From a virus: a DNA stretch of 64,000 bases. The stretch lies in the IMG/VR virus record IMGVR_UViG_3300025466_000012, positions 32,001-96,000 of that record, one strand, 5' to 3'. Positions 3,175 through 12,557 of the stretch are shown in pieces. The translations under genes and the position numbers were made by a program. Below the pieces are notes generated by a model, which saw nothing but the letters and a program-made list of their open reading frames with translations, made no database searches and was not told where the DNA came from. Positions within the stretch are counted from its first letter, which is position 1. Each line of letters begins with the position of its first letter.

Positions 3175-3783
3175 ATGAAAAAATTCCACGATTATCTGGC
3201 CGAGTCCGAACGAACCTATAACTATCGAATCAAGATAGCCGGCGATGTACCAACCGGATTCGTCAAGGACCTGGGTGAAAAACTCAAGCAGTTCGACGTT
3301 GTAAAAATGTCAACAGCCAAGACCACACCAGTACAGGCACGCCTGAACGACTTTCCAGAAATTGAAAACGATCGAGTCACACACATGGATGTGGAGTTCC
3401 GGTATCCGGCTGTAGAGCCGCAGATCAAACAGATTGCGCAACTGTTGATGTTTGATCCCAACAGAATCAGAATGTTGACCACACCCTACGAGGACAGCAT
3501 GGATGAGGAAACTCGCAAGATCCAAGAGCAAAACCAGGATCTTCTCGCAGATACAGATTTTCCTGCACCCGACAAACAGCAAAAGGCCTTGTACAAAGAC
3601 TACAGTACCGAATACAACAATCATGCTGTGTTAAAAAATGCGTACAGAAGCGAATACACCGTGGCCGGTGGACCAACACCAGCCGCCAAGACAACCAATG
3701 ATCTGCCCATGGGCAACAAGAGTCCAATGACCACGATCAAGTTGCCACCAAAACCGCCCACCGGCAGTAAACCAAGAGGATAA
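3175..3783 (+). CDS. Putative capsid-internal protein with capsid-targeting-like N-terminus
   Basis: Starts MKKFHDYLAE; preceded by ATAAATA and AAGGA. Confidence 0.55.
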   Translation: MKKFHDYLAESERTYNYRIKIAGDVPTGFVKDLGEKLKQFDVVKMSTAKTTPVQARLNDFPEIENDRVTHMDVEFRYPAVEPQIKQIAQLLMFDPNRIRMLTTPYEDSMDEETRKIQEQNQDLLADTDFPAPDKQQKALYKDYSTEYNNHAVLKNAYRSEYTVAGGPTPAAKTTNDLPMGNKSPMTTIKLPPKPPTGSKPRG

Positions 3784-3785
3784 AC

Positions 3786-5825
3786 ATGGATAATTTTTTC
3801 TACAATCTAAACAAAAAGATGGCTGATCTGGCCAAACAACAGGATCTGACCGAAGGCGCCGTGAACGAACGCGACATGGGCAAACACAACAATGCCACCA
3901 CCGGTTTCAAGGCTTTGGCCAAGAAAGCCGGCAAAGAATATGGTAGCAAAGCGGCCGGCGAACGTGTGGCTGGTGCTCAATTCCAAAAGATGAAAAAAGC
4001 CAGCCAGCTGGAAGAAGACGGCATGGAAGAAAGTGCCTTACAAGGTTATCTTGGTAAAAAGAAATATGGCCCCGAAGGCATGCAGGCCCTGCAAAAGGCC
4101 GGTCGTGAACATGCAGGCAAAGCCAAAATGGACAAGATCCGCGATCGCTATGACAAGATGGACGAAGCTGACATGGAAGAAGGCAATGCCTTCAGCGGCG
4201 CATTGGCCAATGCCAAAAAAGATCATAAAAGCGAATTTGAAGTCGATGGAAAAAAATACAAAGTGGTCGAAGCTGATCCGACTGGCATGGAGGAAGGTGC
4301 AGGTAACGAGCCCGACACCGAACACCAGATAAAACAACCTCGTCACAAAGTGGGCCGAGGCGAACTCAATCAAGTTGCTGGTATGCAAAATGTCAAGTCA
4401 CACAATCGAGAGCATCCGCTCAAGAATGTTGCCAAAGGCATCAAGGCATTCGTCACAGGCAAAGAAGAACCCATGGACGAAGAAAAAGAATCACGCAGCA
4501 AAGGTACAGCGTTTGATCCTGAGCACATGAAAAAAAGCAAAACCGACCGAGAAGGCACTGGCAACTTTGACAAGAAAAAAGTCAGTACCGGTACCGTGTA
4601 CACTCGCCGTCACCGAGAAGATGACGAAGAAGAAGTCAAGAGCGATCAACCCAAGAAAAAAGGCCGTCCAAAAGGTCCTGCCAAAGGTCCTGAGCGTGTG
4701 ACAGCCAAAAGCTACAAATACAAACAAGGTCGCCCAGTTAAAGAAATGGAAATTCCTATTACCAGTCAAGGCGAATACGACCAAGAAGGCGACGAAGTCA
4801 AAGGCGACATGCACACCGTGATCCGTCATGCCCAAGAACTAGAAAAGCACTTGAGAGACAGTGAAAATCTACCAACCTGGATCATTGAAAAAGTGGGCCA
4901 GATCAAGGGCATGATGACCAGTATCTCGGATTATATGTTGTCACAACACGAACGTGGCGCCGAACACGAAACCGGCCAAGAAGGAATCCGTATTGCCGAA
5001 AAAGCAGTCAGTGTCAAGCAACGTAGGGCTGCTGGCATAGCACATGCCGCACAAAAAGGCGAGATACCTAAAAAAGAATTGCGCGGAGCATCAAAAGCCA
5101 TGGCCCAGATGCCAGCCGGAGAACTACACAAGTTTGCAAGCACCAAAGAAAAAGGCCTTCCAACAAAAGTCAAAGAAAACGGCAAACCAGACTTTTTAGA
5201 TCTAGACAACGATGGCAACAAGACTGAGCCAATGAAACAGGCAGCCAAACAGGTCAAGGGCAAGAAAAAAGAAGTTGACGAAACCACTACCTCGGGCAGT
5301 GTGGCCACGGCTACAGCAGCTCCCAAAGCCAGCAAGGGTATGGCATTTGGCAAGGGTGTGTACGAAGGTGCCATCGCTGAAAGTTACGAAAACAAGTTGA
5401 GCAACATGCTGGCAGAAGGCATGAACGTCAGCGTAAACATGGGACAAGACGAAAGTGGACAGATGCGTAACAACATCACAGTCAGTGCTGACGGTGAGGA
5501 AGCTGACAAGTTGGCCCAGTTGTTAAAACTGGCCGGCATGCATCATGAACCTGAAGCGGCCTGTGCAACTTGCGGAAGTGCACCATGCGGCTGTGCCGAG
5601 CAGGTAGACGAGAATCAACCCGATTGGCCAACCAACACCGAGACCATGGACGGACATGATCCACACATGCGAAATCACTCAGGTGGCCTAAACGGTGCCA
5701 AGAGCAGTGGTCAGACCACTATACCAGTTCTTAACCGCAACAGACAGCGTCAGACCAGCATGGATGAAAATGTCGAACTTGAGCGCACTCTTTTTAAAAC
5801 ATGGAAGAATTACAAAGGCCAATGA
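3786..5825 (+). CDS. Large modular, Lys/Glu-rich putative internal head polyprotein; includes a DUF3008-like segment
   Basis: Basic modules separated by hydrophobic-X-E sites (MEEG, MEES, MDEE, VDET, IAES, LAEG, VDEN). KAVSVKQRRAAGIAHAAQKGE...FASTKEKGLPTKV resembles DUF3008. Confidence 0.6.
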   Translation: MDNFFYNLNKKMADLAKQQDLTEGAVNERDMGKHNNATTGFKALAKKAGKEYGSKAAGERVAGAQFQKMKKASQLEEDGMEESALQGYLGKKKYGPEGMQALQKAGREHAGKAKMDKIRDRYDKMDEADMEEGNAFSGALANAKKDHKSEFEVDGKKYKVVEADPTGMEEGAGNEPDTEHQIKQPRHKVGRGELNQVAGMQNVKSHNREHPLKNVAKGIKAFVTGKEEPMDEEKESRSKGTAFDPEHMKKSKTDREGTGNFDKKKVSTGTVYTRRHREDDEEEVKSDQPKKKGRPKGPAKGPERVTAKSYKYKQGRPVKEMEIPITSQGEYDQEGDEVKGDMHTVIRHAQELEKHLRDSENLPTWIIEKVGQIKGMMTSISDYMLSQHERGAEHETGQEGIRIAEKAVSVKQRRAAGIAHAAQKGEIPKKELRGASKAMAQMPAGELHKFASTKEKGLPTKVKENGKPDFLDLDNDGNKTEPMKQAAKQVKGKKKEVDETTTSGSVATATAAPKASKGMAFGKGVYEGAIAESYENKLSNMLAEGMNVSVNMGQDESGQMRNNITVSADGEEADKLAQLLKLAGMHHEPEAACATCGSAPCGCAEQVDENQPDWPTNTETMDGHDPHMRNHSGGLNGAKSSGQTTIPVLNRNRQRQTSMDENVELERTLFKTWKNYKGQ

Positions 5826-6340
5826 AAAATCTACGAGACTATCTTGCTGAATCAGAATCTTGGATGCTGACACCAGCAGCTGGTGACGACTTTGGAATAG
5901 AATTGGCTGATGGCAGTCTAGTAGAATCCTATGTGTTAGAATCAGAATCGGGTGATGTATTGTTGGCAGCCACGACAGAAATTGTCACAATGCTAGAATC
6001 GCGTGGCATGTTGAGCGATCATGAAACCGATGAAGAAATCGTTCTTGAAACCATGGGCTACGGTACCTTGGTTGGTGAAGAGGAAGACGAAATGGACGAG
6101 GCCAAATATCACGGCCGCGAAGTACCGCTTGGCAAGCCCATGAAGGGCGATGTAAAAAAATCAAAAGTGTATGTGAGAGATCCCTCAACCGGCAACATCA
6201 AAAAAGTAAACTTTGGTGATCCCAACATGCGAATCAAAAAAAGCAGTCCTGCACATAGAAAAAGTTTTAGAGCAAGACACCATTGCGAGAACCCCGGATC
6301 ACGACTAAAAGCCCGTTATTGGTCGTGTCGTGCATGGTAA
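5822..6340 (+). CDS. Putative internal head protein with a basic C-terminal domain
   Basis: ATGA overlap with the upstream gene; starts MKNLRDYLAE; basic domain after MDE (AKYHGREVPLGKP...KARYWSCRAW). Confidence 0.6.
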   Translation: MKNLRDYLAESESWMLTPAAGDDFGIELADGSLVESYVLESESGDVLLAATTEIVTMLESRGMLSDHETDEEIVLETMGYGTLVGEEEDEMDEAKYHGREVPLGKPMKGDVKKSKVYVRDPSTGNIKKVNFGDPNMRIKKSSPAHRKSFRARHHCENPGSRLKARYWSCRAW

Positions 6341-6838: not shown

Positions 6839-7216
6839 ATGCGAGCCCGCGAGTTTATAATCGAAGAAAAAGAAGGCAAGTTGAATCCTGATCATTCATC
6901 AGTGATGCCAACTGCACGCAGAATTCGTGATCGAGGCGGATATGATCGTACCAATCATATGAATCGCATGATGATGGCATTGGCCATGCACGACGGCAAA
7001 ACAAAAAATGCCATACCAAAAGAACAAATGGATCCCAACAGCTGGGTAGAAAAATATAACACAGCACATCCTTATACCAAAGAAGAAGACAACATGATAG
7101 TCGGCGCCATGAAAACGCTGGGTTCAGATCATCATCATGTGATATCAGACCATCGCAGTATTGAACCAACAGATGTACACAAAATCAGCCCAGTCAAAGG
7201 ATTTGGCGGTTATTGA
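6839..7216 (+). CDS. Hypothetical protein with capsid-targeting-like N-terminus
   Basis: Starts MRAREFIIEE. Confidence 0.55.
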   Translation: MRAREFIIEEKEGKLNPDHSSVMPTARRIRDRGGYDRTNHMNRMMMALAMHDGKTKNAIPKEQMDPNSWVEKYNTAHPYTKEEDNMIVGAMKTLGSDHHHVISDHRSIEPTDVHKISPVKGFGGY

Positions 7217-8020: not shown

Positions 8021-9580
8021 ATGGCCGACGAAGCCAATCTAGTCAAGGCGCCACATCGGCGCCAGACCTACACCGAAATCCAGCTGTCAGAATTTGTGGC
8101 CTGTATGGATCCAGTCACAGGTCCGCACTACTTCATGGATAATTTTTTCCATATCCAGCATCCAACCAAGGGCAAGATGCTGTATCGGGCGTTCGACTAT
8201 CAAAAACGCCTGATTGACACCTATCACAACTACAGATACAGCATCAGCATGATGCCTAGACAGACTGGTAAAAGTACCAGTGCTGCCGGTTATTTGCTAT
8301 GGATGGCCATGTTTCGCCCAGACAGCACCATCTTGATTGCTGCACACAAGTACACTGGTAGCCAAGAGATCATGCAGAGAATACGTTATGCCTATGAGCT
8401 GTGTCCGGATCATATCCGTGCCGGTGTGACCAGCTACAACAAGGGCAACCTGGACTTTGAAAACGGGTCAAGGATAGTATCGACCACTACAACAGAAAAT
8501 ACCGGTCGTGGTATGAGTATCACACTCCTGTACTGTGACGAGTTTGCATTCGTGCGTCCCACCATAGCACGCGAGTTCTGGACTTCGATCAGCCCTACCT
8601 TGGCCACTGGTGGTAAAGCCATCATTACCAGCACCCCCAACTCAGACGAAGATCAATTTGCCTTGATCTGGAAAGGAGCCAATCGATGTGAAGACAGCTA
8701 CGGCAATCCTACCGAGATCGGCATCAATGGATTTAGAGCTTATAGAAGCTACTGGAACGAACATCCAGATAGAGATGAACGTTGGGCCTCAGAACAGCGA
8801 GCCCAGCTGGGAGACGATCGTTTCCGGCGCGAAATGGGTTGCGAATTCTTGATCTACGAAGAGACCTTGATAGCACCAGCCAAACTGGTAGACATGACCG
8901 GAATTGATCCGGTCGCGACCATAGGACAAGTGCGATGGTATCAGACACCCAAACCGGGACGTATCTACACTGTGAGTCTGGATCCCAGTCTGGGCACCGG
9001 TGGCGACAATGCGGCCATACAGATATTTGAAGCCAATACCACCGAGCAGATAGGCGAGTGGAAACACAACCGGACAGCCATACCTGAACAGATACAACTG
9101 CTGGCATCGATCTGCGCCCATATCAACGAAACAGTAAAAAATCCTGAAAACATCTACTACAGCGTGGAAAACAACAGCATAGGTGAAGCAGCCTTGGTCA
9201 GCTTGCAACAGTACGGTGAAGAAAACATCAAGGGCTATTTTTTAAGCGAAAGCGGAGCTGCTGGCCGCACGTATAGAAAAGGGTTCAATACCACACACAA
9301 GAGCAAGATAGCTGCCTGCTCCAAACTCAAGACCTTGATCGAAACCGGCAAGATGAAGATACGCAGCAGGCCTTTGATCAGCGAACTCAAAACCTTTGTG
9401 GCAGCCAAGATGAGCTATGCGGCCAAAATTGGTGAAAGCGACGACTTGGTCATGGCCACCTTGCTGGCTGTACGAATGATGCAACAGCTACAAAACTATC
9501 ATCCTGAAATGGACCGTCAGTTGAGAGATTTCAGCGACAACCTGATTCCACCAATGCCATTTGTGGCCACATTACGATAA
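8021..9580 (+). CDS. terL: Terminase large subunit (T4 gp17-like)
   Basis: Walker A MPRQTGKST, Walker B LLYCDE, TSTPN coupling motif, nuclease motifs SLDPSLGTGGD and DDLVMA. Confidence 0.95.
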   Translation: MADEANLVKAPHRRQTYTEIQLSEFVACMDPVTGPHYFMDNFFHIQHPTKGKMLYRAFDYQKRLIDTYHNYRYSISMMPRQTGKSTSAAGYLLWMAMFRPDSTILIAAHKYTGSQEIMQRIRYAYELCPDHIRAGVTSYNKGNLDFENGSRIVSTTTTENTGRGMSITLLYCDEFAFVRPTIAREFWTSISPTLATGGKAIITSTPNSDEDQFALIWKGANRCEDSYGNPTEIGINGFRAYRSYWNEHPDRDERWASEQRAQLGDDRFRREMGCEFLIYEETLIAPAKLVDMTGIDPVATIGQVRWYQTPKPGRIYTVSLDPSLGTGGDNAAIQIFEANTTEQIGEWKHNRTAIPEQIQLLASICAHINETVKNPENIYYSVENNSIGEAALVSLQQYGEENIKGYFLSESGAAGRTYRKGFNTTHKSKIAACSKLKTLIETGKMKIRSRPLISELKTFVAAKMSYAAKIGESDDLVMATLLAVRMMQQLQNYHPEMDRQLRDFSDNLIPPMPFVATLR

Positions 9581-9590
9581 ATAATAAATC

Positions 9591-12557
9591 ATGGCAAAAG
9601 AAACTATTGGAAAAAAACTCTACGATTTGCTGGCCACCCGGGACTATGACAACTTCCAGGCCCTGGACAGCGCCACTGGCAAGGTACCCGTAGATCCCAA
9701 AACAGGTGCACAGAATGTGGGCGAAGCCAACATGTTTGTGTTTGACTGGAGCTCCAGTCGCGGCAAAAACTACGGTACTGCTGTGATCTTGTTGACCGAC
9801 GATCATGATCTTGAACTGTACTTTGGCGACAACCTAGGCAAGACCATGGAAGATCGCGAAGACAAAAACGAGTGGTTTGCATTCATGGAGCAGCTGAGAC
9901 ATTTTGCCACACGTACCAATTTCAACGGATTCAGACCGCTCAACATCAATCAACTGAGACACAGCCTGCAAGGGCAAGCTGCCATCCGGGAAGGACTTTT
10001 TGAAAGCTGGCAAGGTCGCAAGAACATGAGCTGGAACGGTGTGGCCACCGAAGCCAGACTCATGATACGTCACAAAAGAGACCTTGGACCCGACGAAGCC
10101 AGACACAGATATGTGGAGAGCCTGTTCATTGAAACAGCAGAAGGTGAACGTTACAAATTGCCATTTGTGAATCTAGGCGGTGGCAAGGCCATGCTGGAAC
10201 ATGTGCGCCAGGGTGGCAGACCCTACGATACAAGAGGTCAACACATAGCCAACATGATCCAAGAGATCAATATTTTGAGCAGATTTGAACGCAGCGTGGC
10301 CGGCGATGCCTTGATGGAAGGCGATACTGCGCAACTGGTGACCGAAGCTCACGGGTACAAACACAGTCTCAAAACCAATCTCAAACGTCTGGCTACCGGA
10401 CGCGGATACGCAGACTATTTTGAATCATGGAATCCGGCCAGCATCACTGAGCAAGATGTGGTAGTGGAAAGTCTCAAGCAACTGTTTGTAAAACAGACTC
10501 TGGACACCAGGATTGAACAAGCACTGCCGTTACTGGCAAAGATACAACAACAAGGACAAGCTATGAAAGAAGCCACGATATTTGAAGCCTGGGCCAACCG
10601 CCTGGTAGAAGGAACCTGGAGCCTGCCGGACACTCCAGAAAAACAGCAACAGCTGATAGATTTTATGAGCCAGGAACAACCGGTTGGTGCCGATGCTACA
10701 GATGCCACTGAGCAACTGTATGACATCCTGGGCGATGATCAGTTGTTTGATCGACTGAGTGAGTTGGCCGATCAGCACCCTGACAGCGATTGCCGCCAGT
10801 TGGTTCTGGACCGCATGCAGGAACTCAGCGATGATCCAGATGTGCGAGAGGCCTTGGAAAAACTCAATGTCAACACAGATGCTACCATGCACCCAGCGGC
10901 GGCTACTCCAGCCGATCTAGGCGGTGATAGCGATGGCGGCGACATCGATGAAAGCATGAGTGACCACCAGCATCATGTGTGGACTGTGCATTTTGCCGAC
11001 GGAACCCAGCGTCGTGTACCAGTAGGCAGCGATGAATTTGATTACGAAATCAAACGTATCCAGGATCATTTTGCCAAACAGGGACTTGAAGTGGTTGACG
11101 TGGACACAGATACTGCCATACACGGTGAACCACCCGCTGAACCAGAAGATTATGAAAAGACCGAAGGTGTCGCAGAAGGTCATGCAGACCAACAACGCAA
11201 AGTGTTTAAGAAGAATGGCAAGCCAGTAGGCGAAGTCGGTATTGACCGTGAATCGAGCCCAGGTGTTGGTCAGTATTACATGAAGCATTATGCTAGTGGT
11301 AAAGATTTGTCTGGGTATGATTCATACGAAGAAGCAGTAGCAGAACTAAAACATTGTCTAAAACAAGGTGTCGCAGAAGGTCATGCAGACCAACAACGCA
11401 AAGTGTTTAAGAAGAATGGCAAGCCAGTAGGCGAAGTCGGTATTGACCGTGAATCGAGCCCAGGTGTTGGTCAGTATTACATGAAGCATTATGCTAGTGG
11501 TAAAGATTTGTCTGGGTATGATTCATACGAAGAAGCAGTAGCAGAACTAAAACATTGTCTAAAACAAGGTGTGGCGGAAGGCTCAACTACACGAGGTGGG
11601 TTTGGTGGTTCAGCCAGTCAAGCACATCACGAAATTGAATGGCTTAAGAATAAGATTGAAACACTGAAACCGTTGTTGACCAAGAAACCCGGTGTTGCTC
11701 GTCAAATACGAGATTTGGAAAGACAGATCCGTGAGAGAGAACTGGCTATGGCATATCACGATCAAGGTGTGGCGGAAGATGCAATCCAATCTTTACGCAG
11801 AGCCGCTGGCTTGAATGAAAATGTGTTACGTGATAGCACCGGCAGCACACTGGATCATATTGCTGATAAATTCAAACGTGACATCCGAGATTTTGAAGCC
11901 ACAGGCAATCTCAGTGATGATTTGTTTGACGCACTATACGATTATTACCAAGATGACATGCCATACGGTGTACAAAAAGCTCGCTCGGGCGATCCGCACG
12001 ATTGGATCGCAGATCGAATCACTCAAGACTTAGGGTTACAACCAACCGATCTTGATCCGTTTGAAAAATTCAAATTGCGTAATAACGCAGCTCGTGACCA
12101 AGCAGGCATGCCACCCAATCCAGATTTCCAAGAAGAACGTGATCCACATTCGGTAGATGGCGGCATGGCCAATGCGTTGTTGGCTGACGATGCCGTCTGC
12201 AACATGAGCGATCATGGTCATCATTGCCCGGTACACGGAATTGAAGAATGTTGGGGTGCTGAATCCATGCCCGGTATGGAAGAAGGCGCAGTTGGAGCTG
12301 TAGCAGGTGCAGTACTAGCTCCTGAACTGGGACCACTGGCCAGCCGTGTTGGTAGCATGGCACAAGATGCCATGACCGATTCAGATGACGACCTTGACGA
12401 AGAAGGATTTGGTCTCAACCCAACTCCGGCAGCCATGGAAGAAGAACGCAGTCCGTTGGCTGGCATATATGGACATTCGGGCAAGATGAAGGAAGTGGGC
12501 CGTGACGTCGGCTTTTTGGACAGACTGAAAGAGCTGGCCGGCATGCGACAGGCATAA
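9591..12557 (+). CDS. Large modular putative capsid-internal polyprotein with a GVAE(G/D)-linked cassette array
   Basis: ATAAATA at 9577-9583; repeated hydrophobic-X-E sites; four GVAE linkers at 11166, 11367, 11568 and 11766. Confidence 0.65.
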   Translation: MAKETIGKKLYDLLATRDYDNFQALDSATGKVPVDPKTGAQNVGEANMFVFDWSSSRGKNYGTAVILLTDDHDLELYFGDNLGKTMEDREDKNEWFAFMEQLRHFATRTNFNGFRPLNINQLRHSLQGQAAIREGLFESWQGRKNMSWNGVATEARLMIRHKRDLGPDEARHRYVESLFIETAEGERYKLPFVNLGGGKAMLEHVRQGGRPYDTRGQHIANMIQEINILSRFERSVAGDALMEGDTAQLVTEAHGYKHSLKTNLKRLATGRGYADYFESWNPASITEQDVVVESLKQLFVKQTLDTRIEQALPLLAKIQQQGQAMKEATIFEAWANRLVEGTWSLPDTPEKQQQLIDFMSQEQPVGADATDATEQLYDILGDDQLFDRLSELADQHPDSDCRQLVLDRMQELSDDPDVREALEKLNVNTDATMHPAAATPADLGGDSDGGDIDESMSDHQHHVWTVHFADGTQRRVPVGSDEFDYEIKRIQDHFAKQGLEVVDVDTDTAIHGEPPAEPEDYEKTEGVAEGHADQQRKVFKKNGKPVGEVGIDRESSPGVGQYYMKHYASGKDLSGYDSYEEAVAELKHCLKQGVAEGHADQQRKVFKKNGKPVGEVGIDRESSPGVGQYYMKHYASGKDLSGYDSYEEAVAELKHCLKQGVAEGSTTRGGFGGSASQAHHEIEWLKNKIETLKPLLTKKPGVARQIRDLERQIRERELAMAYHDQGVAEDAIQSLRRAAGLNENVLRDSTGSTLDHIADKFKRDIRDFEATGNLSDDLFDALYDYYQDDMPYGVQKARSGDPHDWIADRITQDLGLQPTDLDPFEKFKLRNNAARDQAGMPPNPDFQEERDPHSVDGGMANALLADDAVCNMSDHGHHCPVHGIEECWGAESMPGMEEGAVGAVAGAVLAPELGPLASRVGSMAQDAMTDSDDDLDEEGFGLNPTPAAMEEERSPLAGIYGHSGKMKEVGRDVGFLDRLKELAGMRQA
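11164..11572 (+). repeat. Perfect in-frame tandem duplication, 2 x 201 bp (67 aa)
   Basis: 11164-11364 is identical to 11365-11565 by direct comparison; identity continues 7 nt into a third linker. Confidence 0.95.

Follow-up and report, generated by a model that had tools for sequence, protein, structure and literature searches.

In phage T4, proteins enter the prohead by means of a capsid targeting sequence (CTS) of 10 residues, the protease gp21 cuts after the Glu of L/I-X-E sites and is blocked when this P1 Glu is replaced by Asp, and the internal proteins IPI, IPII, IPIII and Alt are each encoded by a separate gene with one leader per cargo (PMC9026906). In the giant phages phiKZ and SPN3US, head proteins, among them inner-body and ejection proteins, are likewise cleaved behind a Glu by gp175 and gp245, two divergent homologues of gp21 (PMC10052503, PMC9026906), in some cases at more than one position; the motif is A-X-E or S/A/G-X-E, mostly in N-terminal propeptides, and SPN3US gp245 cuts after A-X-E (PMC10052503). 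The polyvalent proteins (Iyer et al. 2017, PMC5512222) combine many unrelated, mostly enzymatic domains in one polypeptide, typically with an embedded zincin-like peptidase, are encoded near packaging genes, and have been suggested to accompany the DNA into the cell and to undergo processing into separate pieces. PeSL motifs of T4-like phages (Comeau et al. 2014, PMC4122927) are intergenic promoter-terminator stem-loops, short conserved DNA motifs that flank unrelated cassettes and serve as exchange points in the shuffling of whole genes. Here we describe a locus that works like the T4 CTS and internal proteins, the polyvalent proteins and PeSL exchange, and by their defining features is a member of none of them. 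It is the 988-amino-acid (aa) gene P0001 (9591..12557, on the + strand, as are all features of this gene given below) in a window of 64,000 nt, the whole stretch of DNA that was analysed, which comprises bases 32001-96000 of a 199,683-bp IMG/VR virus record (IMGVR_UViG_3300025466_000012). The record is estimated to be 58% complete, which, given its length, indicates a jumbo phage as the source. Between large conserved N- and C-terminal parts, P0001 holds four small cassettes joined by a linker with the consensus (E/K)-Q-G-V-A-E-G-S.

As with the T4 internal proteins, relatives of this phage possess a Portal_T4, Peptidase_S77 and Gp23 head module, the proposed cut falls after the Glu of an aliphatic-X-Glu site, many carriers of the same cassettes have leaders (for example, MKTYQEFIAE), and the cargo set is small, variable and poorly conserved. 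Unlike them, many cargos lie in one open reading frame (ORF), the sites are internal and of one fixed hexapeptide whose DNA is itself conserved, and P0001 has its two large conserved parts and no leader. The likeness to polyvalent proteins lies in the many unrelated domains of one polypeptide encoded near packaging genes: P0001 has four cassettes and two conserved parts beside the large terminase gene (TerL). In addition, a search of BFVD with the model of its N-terminal part returned only uncharacterised phage proteins, one of them named for a large-polyvalent-protein-associated domain. However, neither an embedded peptidase nor any domain of known activity was found in P0001 with Pfam and PHROGs, and its modules are ~50-100 aa long, belong to no known family and share a uniform linker that matches a head protease. 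In contrast to the PeSLs, the joint lies inside an ORF, spans 14-16 coding nucleotides read as Q-G-V-A-E, and shuffles domains in frame. The phiKZ and SPN3US proteins differ in having Ala, Ser or Gly at P3, which is Val here, show no sequence relation to P0001 (tblastn against phage records), and have no reported cassette exchange or DNA-conserved junction. MuF and polymorphic-toxin head proteins are set apart by the absence of a MuF (SPP1 gp7) Pfam match in P0001 and by its variable part being internal rather than C-terminal. In the literature we found no paper on a uniform, DNA-conserved, protease-site-like joint linking in-frame cassettes. The P0001 locus contributes an allelic series with a one-/two-copy pair, a carrier type with a virion relative in phage PA5oct, the breadth and constraint of one cassette (M1), and a quantified enrichment of leaders.

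We tentatively propose, as a reading that is quite possible, that QGVAEG is dual-coded. The peptide would be a cut site for the head protease and the DNA a conserved crossover signal, together forming an integron-like in-frame system by which T4-related environmental phages assemble, duplicate and exchange small proteins for loading into the head and delivery alongside the genome; certain cassettes, M1 among them, would be constrained more strongly than any carrier because they act on a conserved host or phage target. In the explanation that we favour, and hold to be more likely than not, the cassettes would be small, independently folding units (median 67 aa in the sampled sets), each ending in (K/E)-Q-G-V-A-E, usually followed by G. 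The 14-16-nt linker DNA would act as a portable, frame-preserving crossover point, at which short-homology or unequal exchange would add, remove, replace or duplicate cassettes, a 201-bp duplication in P0001 being one such event between junction copies. In the prohead, a serine protease of the T4 gp21 type (Peptidase_S77) would cut after the Glu of V-A-E and thereby split P0001 into its N part, its individual cassettes and its C part; some of these small proteins would stay in the head and exit with the DNA, like the T4 internal proteins.

Cassettes bounded by the linker

The original prediction had described in the 988-aa ORF four GVAE linkers encoded by a conserved sequence of ~16 nt, with two identical modules and an unrelated one between them, and in these respects it was reproduced, including the linker sequences that it quoted. 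The GVAE codons start at 11166, 11367, 11568 and 11766 (residues 526, 593, 660 and 726), spaced 201, 201 and 198 bp apart. They lie within a 16-nt repeat family formed by junction 1 (11163..11178, GAAGGTGTCGCAGAAG), junction 2 (11364..11379, CAAGGTGTCGCAGAAG), junction 3 (11565..11580, CAAGGTGTGGCGGAAG, the consensus form) and junction 4 (11763..11778, again CAAGGTGTGGCGGAAG); the Val-Ala codons are GTC GCA in two of the four and GTG GCG in the other two. The first cassette, M0 (aa 455-529, 10953..11177), ends in TEGVAE and follows the I-D-E (10944..10952) of an I452-D-E-S stretch, from which the first module had been predicted to run. This I-D-E is a candidate first junction: homologous M0 cassettes are preceded by VTE (in L004) and VAE (in L027), each followed by S and at the same distance from the HVWTV strand. 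Relatives of M0 occur in other contexts in L004, L027 (twice), L031, P0053 and P0077. Two copies of M1 follow (aa 530-596, 11178..11378, and aa 597-663, 11379..11579), and then M3 (aa 664-729, 11580..11777), which is predicted to be helical and has copies 85-88% identical in L027, P0077 and P0132, where the right-hand neighbours differ. The modules had also been judged by eye to be more AT-rich than the flanking gene. This holds against the N and C parts (GC content of 0.433 for M1 and 0.465 for M3 versus 0.509 and 0.503), but their GC content is near the window mean of 0.459.

Throughout a very large family, the linker motif occurs far more often than expected and independently of position. 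From composition, ~0.03 GVAE would be expected per 988 aa. The 150 best representative homologues, with no more than 50% identity between any two, contain 84 GVAE (3.5 expected), 64 GVAEG (0.28 expected) and 46 QGVAEG (0.01 expected); scrambled versions of the motif occurred 1-5 times. The motif is thus not due to chance.

Comparison of 33 related loci on viral contigs revealed that the N and C parts are kept and the middle differs. Thus the variation in module number and identity that the original prediction had asked for among orthologues, with the junctions staying at GVAE, is present. On a near-constant backbone, P0001 reads M0-M1-M1-M3. The allele P0158 (921 aa, on ten contigs) reads M0-M1-M3 and is 99.9-100% identical in DNA over ~9 kb except for the 201-bp unit. 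In L003, M0-M1 is followed by three unrelated cassettes, and its DNA is 94% identical as far as the junction that follows M1; P0002 combines M0 with a different cassette at 96% aa identity. In DNA alignments, homology switches on and off at the 16-nt junction. M1 is matched at full length in more than 100 carriers with unrelated flanks, each match beginning immediately behind xV[AT]E and extending to a terminal GVAE; in 123 copies of M1 the preceding residues are GVAE 73 times, SVTE 14 times and SVAE 12 times, and its own end is GVAE in 95. When 302 proteins were cut at the junction, we obtained 406 doubly bounded segments with a median length of 67 aa, which fall into 215 similarity clusters, 165 of them singletons, in a sample that is biased towards M1. 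Cassettes are found repeatedly in carriers that are unrelated, delimited precisely by the linker, and near-identical backbones carry different cassette sets. We also examined the ends of BLAST local alignments (high-scoring segment pairs, HSPs): at >= 90% identity, 24 of 51 internal boundaries in variable regions are no more than 3 aa away from [VILM][AST]E, where chance would give 3.8. Over all or lower-identity HSPs this enrichment is about three-fold, a point against the favoured explanation. We consider cassette exchange at a DNA-conserved junction to be well supported.

The cassette M1 deserves separate treatment. It is carried by at least 276 clusters (at 90% identity, in a search restricted to longer proteins), and the best 120 of these match at 72-100% identity over 94-100% of its length. 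These listed carriers are 128-1991 aa long, and some also have a DUF6321, ParB_N, LysM, GP88 or RMF-like domain. By contrast, tblastn of M1 against 50,697 isolate phage records gave no match. Between contexts, the ratio of non-synonymous to synonymous divergence (dN/dS) of M1 is 0.03-0.06, with dS above 1 or saturated, and in P0261 M1 is 81-85% identical to that of P0001 whereas the N part is only 28% identical. M1 is thus far better kept than the N part, and is an old domain under tight constraint rather than a recent hitch-hiker, and the very strong purifying selection implies a conserved target. Its AlphaFold2 (AF2) model has four strands and a C-terminal helix (predicted local distance difference test, pLDDT, 81). 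In VIA-align the best score was Z 6.2, to the methane monooxygenase inhibitory subunit, with AP2- and dsRBD-like rows at Z 4-5; these scores are below the level at which they would mean more than a common sheet-plus-helix arrangement. A feature search for M1 in Atlas gave no usable match, and the structure rows there were small hypothetical proteins and DUF1797.

The spread of M1 raises the alternative that such modules are selfish in-frame cassettes, which entered head-addressed proteins with the junction as their landing site and were tolerated because the head protease excises them, as a protein-level analogue of inteins. The presence of M1 in clusters of unrelated architecture, its far better conservation than that of its carriers (seen against the N part in P0261) and one short contig that joins it to a terminase fragment are in keeping with this. 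On that 1.4-kb contig, a 384-aa protein (P0182) runs from a terminase ATPase fragment (Terminase_6N, E 4e-18) through AKGVAE into M1 and further cassettes; it is a genuine fusion or else a chimera assembled across the shared junction. However, neither a nuclease nor a recombinase was found in or beside the cassettes, the low dN/dS with saturated silent sites speaks for long-term selection on the protein, and more than 200 different cassette families use the same joint, so that we regard the selfish reading as quite improbable. An intein-like element proper was rejected, given that there are no nucleophile or HN motifs and that the cassettes are unrelated to one another.

Conservation of the linker as DNA

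Codon usage falls far short of explaining how well the silent positions of the linker DNA (CAA GGT GTG GCG GAA G) are conserved. In a sample of 57 GVAE junctions from 15 genes, including six carriers from other lineages and genomic contexts, Gly is encoded by GGT in 95% of junctions as against 41% elsewhere in the same genes, Val by GTG in 91% as against 25%, and Ala by GCG in 84% as against 6%; Glu shows no bias, with GAA at 79% versus 82%. From the genome's own codon usage, GGT GTG GCG GAA would be expected for 0.8% of GVAE peptides. Between diverged copies of M1, silent differences at same-residue codons amount to 46% in the body, 20% in the 3' junction and 31% in the 5' junction. The more distant relatives L005 and L020 use GGC GTG GCC; given that the peptide is kept there with other codons, it is selected in its own right, with the DNA form as an additional layer. 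It should be noted that the 57 junctions may share ancestry and hence are not 57 independent events; nevertheless, they separate unrelated cassettes, and silent sites of the adjoining M1 bodies are saturated. By its codon bias, silent-site conservation and homology breaks, the junction behaves as a DNA-level joint, in line with the recombination joint that had been predicted.

In its own genome, the 15-mer and its near-copies occur solely as in-frame junctions, four in P0001 and two in P0269, a polyprotein-like 707-aa ORF outside the window (L036:9932-12052, genome 179932-182052). P0269 is another cassette carrier, starts with MNLFDFFED, and holds one exact 15-nt junction (DQGVAEGF) and one copy with a single mismatch (KQGVVEGH); it has no Pfam or PHROG match. 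We also considered internal translation starts, formed by the AGGUG of the junction and an in-frame GUG, and rejected them on two grounds: cassettes differ in what lies 5' of the GUG, and, as AGGUG and GUG overlap, there is no room for the spacer that a ribosome-binding site needs.

The two identical modules form a perfect 201-bp tandem duplication, with units 11164-11364 and 11365-11565 identical at all 201 nt (Tandem Repeats Finder: period 201, 2.1 copies). Junction 2, between the two copies of M1, is a hybrid created by this duplication: on the left it consists of the end of M1, and on the right (GTC GCA GAA GGT CAT) it equals junction 1, so that the end of M1 is followed by GGTGTCGCAGAAGGTCAT. 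Unequal exchange or slippage between junctions 3 and 1 in their shared AAGGTGT would produce just such a hybrid, the exchange point lying within or to the left of that heptamer. Two of the four junctions in the window are thus copies of each other, and the two-copy state is unreplicated in other assemblies. The occurrence of the two-copy allele in one assembly alone, alongside ten contigs that are 99.9-100% identical around it and have one copy, counts against taking the duplication as an established case of exchange, and no other record has the exact 988-aa product. Either a rare allele or an error of assembly may account for the duplication; equally, the one-copy assemblies of the k141 type could have collapsed a true duplication. 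The expandability that had been envisaged depends here on this duplication, which is seen in a single assembly.

The perfection and uniqueness of the duplication, set beside the ten near-identical one-copy contigs, could lead one to ascribe the whole array to metagenome assembly and the recurrence of GVAE to chance. However, a single copy of M1 would still leave three junctions and three different cassettes, and hundreds of independent assemblies share this junction and these cassettes, which refutes an artefact for the array as a whole and makes such an explanation extremely improbable.

The linker as a candidate protease site

Linker cleavage by a T4-type prohead protease, as proposed under the dual-coded reading, is plausible from the sequences. 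The junction has V-A-E followed by G, D or A, and so fits aliphatic-X-Glu. The head maturation protease of PA5oct has counterparts with 54-56% identity on the related contigs G001 (where the P0001 orthologue is 78% identical) and G003; the one of G001 matches Peptidase_S77 (E 1e-22) and lies between Portal_T4 (E 8e-105) and Gp23 (E 3e-97). T4-like leaders were detected in 49 of 113 M1 carriers (43%), such as MKASEFTTEA, MKNFRDYLSES and MKKLTDYLAET, as against 8 of 294 control ORFs of this genome, several of the 8 being themselves candidates; a second leader type (MFALDLFN, MNLFDIV) is seen in another 19 M1 carriers. This enrichment is the strongest indirect support for a protease site. Three neighbouring genes in this window likewise start with such leaders, and the PA5oct relative of P0001 is annotated as a virion protein. 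Furthermore, the ends of the M1 model are of low confidence, as would be expected of exposed linkers.

Several findings speak against a protease site. The record itself has no matches to Peptidase_S77, Gp23, Portal_T4 or the PA5oct protease or capsid protein, although in a fragment that is 58% complete this carries little weight. The P3 Val is outside the L/I-X-E consensus of T4, and in the capsid protein of G001 the candidate sites are of the L/I-X-E type rather than GVAE. P0001 starts with MAKETIGKKLYDLL, which does not match the CTS-like leader pattern, and hence its N part would have to do the targeting. Finally, M1 has an internal A-V-A-E (11334-11345 and 11535-11546 in the two copies) in its predicted C-terminal helix, so that V-A-E alone cannot define the site, and the QG context or an unfolded linker would be needed. 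The predicted role of the linker as a prohead protease site is accordingly plausible to likely, in that Peptidase_S77 is present in the lineage, V-A-E fits the aliphatic-X-Glu rule and carriers have leaders, although P0001 lacks a leader and its Val departs from the consensus.

These points bear on the alternative that the linker is a recombination joint only, a flexible inter-domain hinge in a protein that remains whole in the virion like beads on a string, its match to the protease rule being coincidental. Such a reading is economical in that cassette exchange and DNA-level conservation need no cleavage, and it accords with the missing leader of P0001 and with a junction that is not the site type suggested by the capsid protein of the lineage. 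It leaves unexplained, however, the invariance of the peptide (a fixed Glu with a small residue after it) where the DNA varies, as in L005 and L020, as well as the CTS-like leaders ending in aliphatic-X-Glu in 43% of carriers, and on balance we consider a mere joint rather unlikely. Returning to the dual-coded linker, we infer for the pieces of P0001 a head-internal location, injection and an effector function.

Should the linker serve for both cutting and crossover, nature would have in it a simple rule by which proteins that deliver several cargos are built and reshuffled. This would bear on how phages diversify the proteins that they deliver into cells against host defences, and would offer a design principle for placing several payloads in T4-type capsids. 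The hundreds of unannotated mini-protein families would be candidate early-acting phage factors, foremost among them M1 as the most widespread and most conserved cassette.

A separate observation concerns a 1494-aa ORF of L027, in which one cassette begins, directly behind GVAE, with a stretch resembling a twin-arginine signal, DRRGFLKGLGAAAVAGG (residues ~988-1015; also at the cut end of L003). Its match to Pfam TAT_signal (E 0.0012) is below the cut-off. Were the linker cut, this stretch would become an export signal at a new N-terminus.

The carrier gene and its setting

P0001 is probably a virion protein of an uncultured T4-related jumbo phage, with an N part of ~450 aa, a C part of ~260 aa and a variable cassette array between them. 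It lies directly 3' of the large terminase gene (8021..9580, Terminase_6N/6C in Pfam) and is followed by a gp32-like single-stranded DNA-binding protein gene and a UvsX gene (Pfam, PHROGs). This order is syntenic with TerL, gp279, gp278 and then UvsX in PA5oct, the full order there being tail tube, head closure, TerL, gp279, gp278 and UvsX. The conserved N part (aa 1-454, 9591..10952) is related to PA5oct gp278 and to a Rak2-like 'virion structural protein'. The sole PHROGs match of P0001, phrog_13484 'virion structural protein', covers residues 137-278 (E 8e-9). PA5oct gp278 (496 aa) is annotated as a virion protein detected by electrospray ionisation tandem mass spectrometry (ESI-MS/MS), and GVAE cassettes were not found in it. 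In tblastn against phage records the N part alone was matched (27-31% identity), the matches coming from PA5oct-like and Rak2-like phages and a small number of further jumbo phages, and megablast of the P0001 gene against 50,697 phage records gave no match. On Pfam, P0001 yields merely a sub-threshold Med9 match.

An exhaustive profile-free search recovered 2754 representative homologues at E <= 0.001, 563 of them at E <= 1e-30. They range from ~340 to 1442 aa, and the match nearly always covers the first 400-450 residues. The AF2 model of the N part (pLDDT 79) retrieved nothing from the PDB at E <= 0.001 with Foldseek, and a wide VIA-align search was uninformative, with a best Z of 6.8 on a helical stretch.

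The conserved C part (aa 730-988, 11778..12554) is covered by 104 BLAST HSPs among the 185 proteins compared. Its conserved features include a Cys/His knuckle of the form C-x8-C-x2-H-x5-C (12198-12251, CNMSDHGHHCPVHGIEEC) and, as seen in the alignments, a C-terminal tail FLDRLKELAGM (12513-12545). In many homologues the knuckle reads ...CPxHGLAEC and so mimics the junction motif; this stretch is probably a metal site rather than a junction.

Between the head-closure gene and TerL, the genes at 3175-3783, 5822-6340 and 6839-7216 have T4-like capsid-targeting leaders (MKKFHDYLAE, MKNLRDYLAE and MRAREFIIE, respectively). The first of these resembles PA5oct gp282 (MKSFRDYYDA), a structural protein found by mass spectrometry. 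A 679-aa ORF in the same region (window 3786-5825) has many M/I/L-x-E sites and basic stretches, with a DUF3008 match at residues 408-462 (E 5e-13); from its sequence it looks like a second polyprotein of small modules, in this case without the GVAE junction. In a distant relative (L047:234-2979), the large terminase is called as two ORFs, matching Terminase_6N and Terminase_6C, with a 262-aa ORF between them, which suggests a mobile element inserted in TerL.

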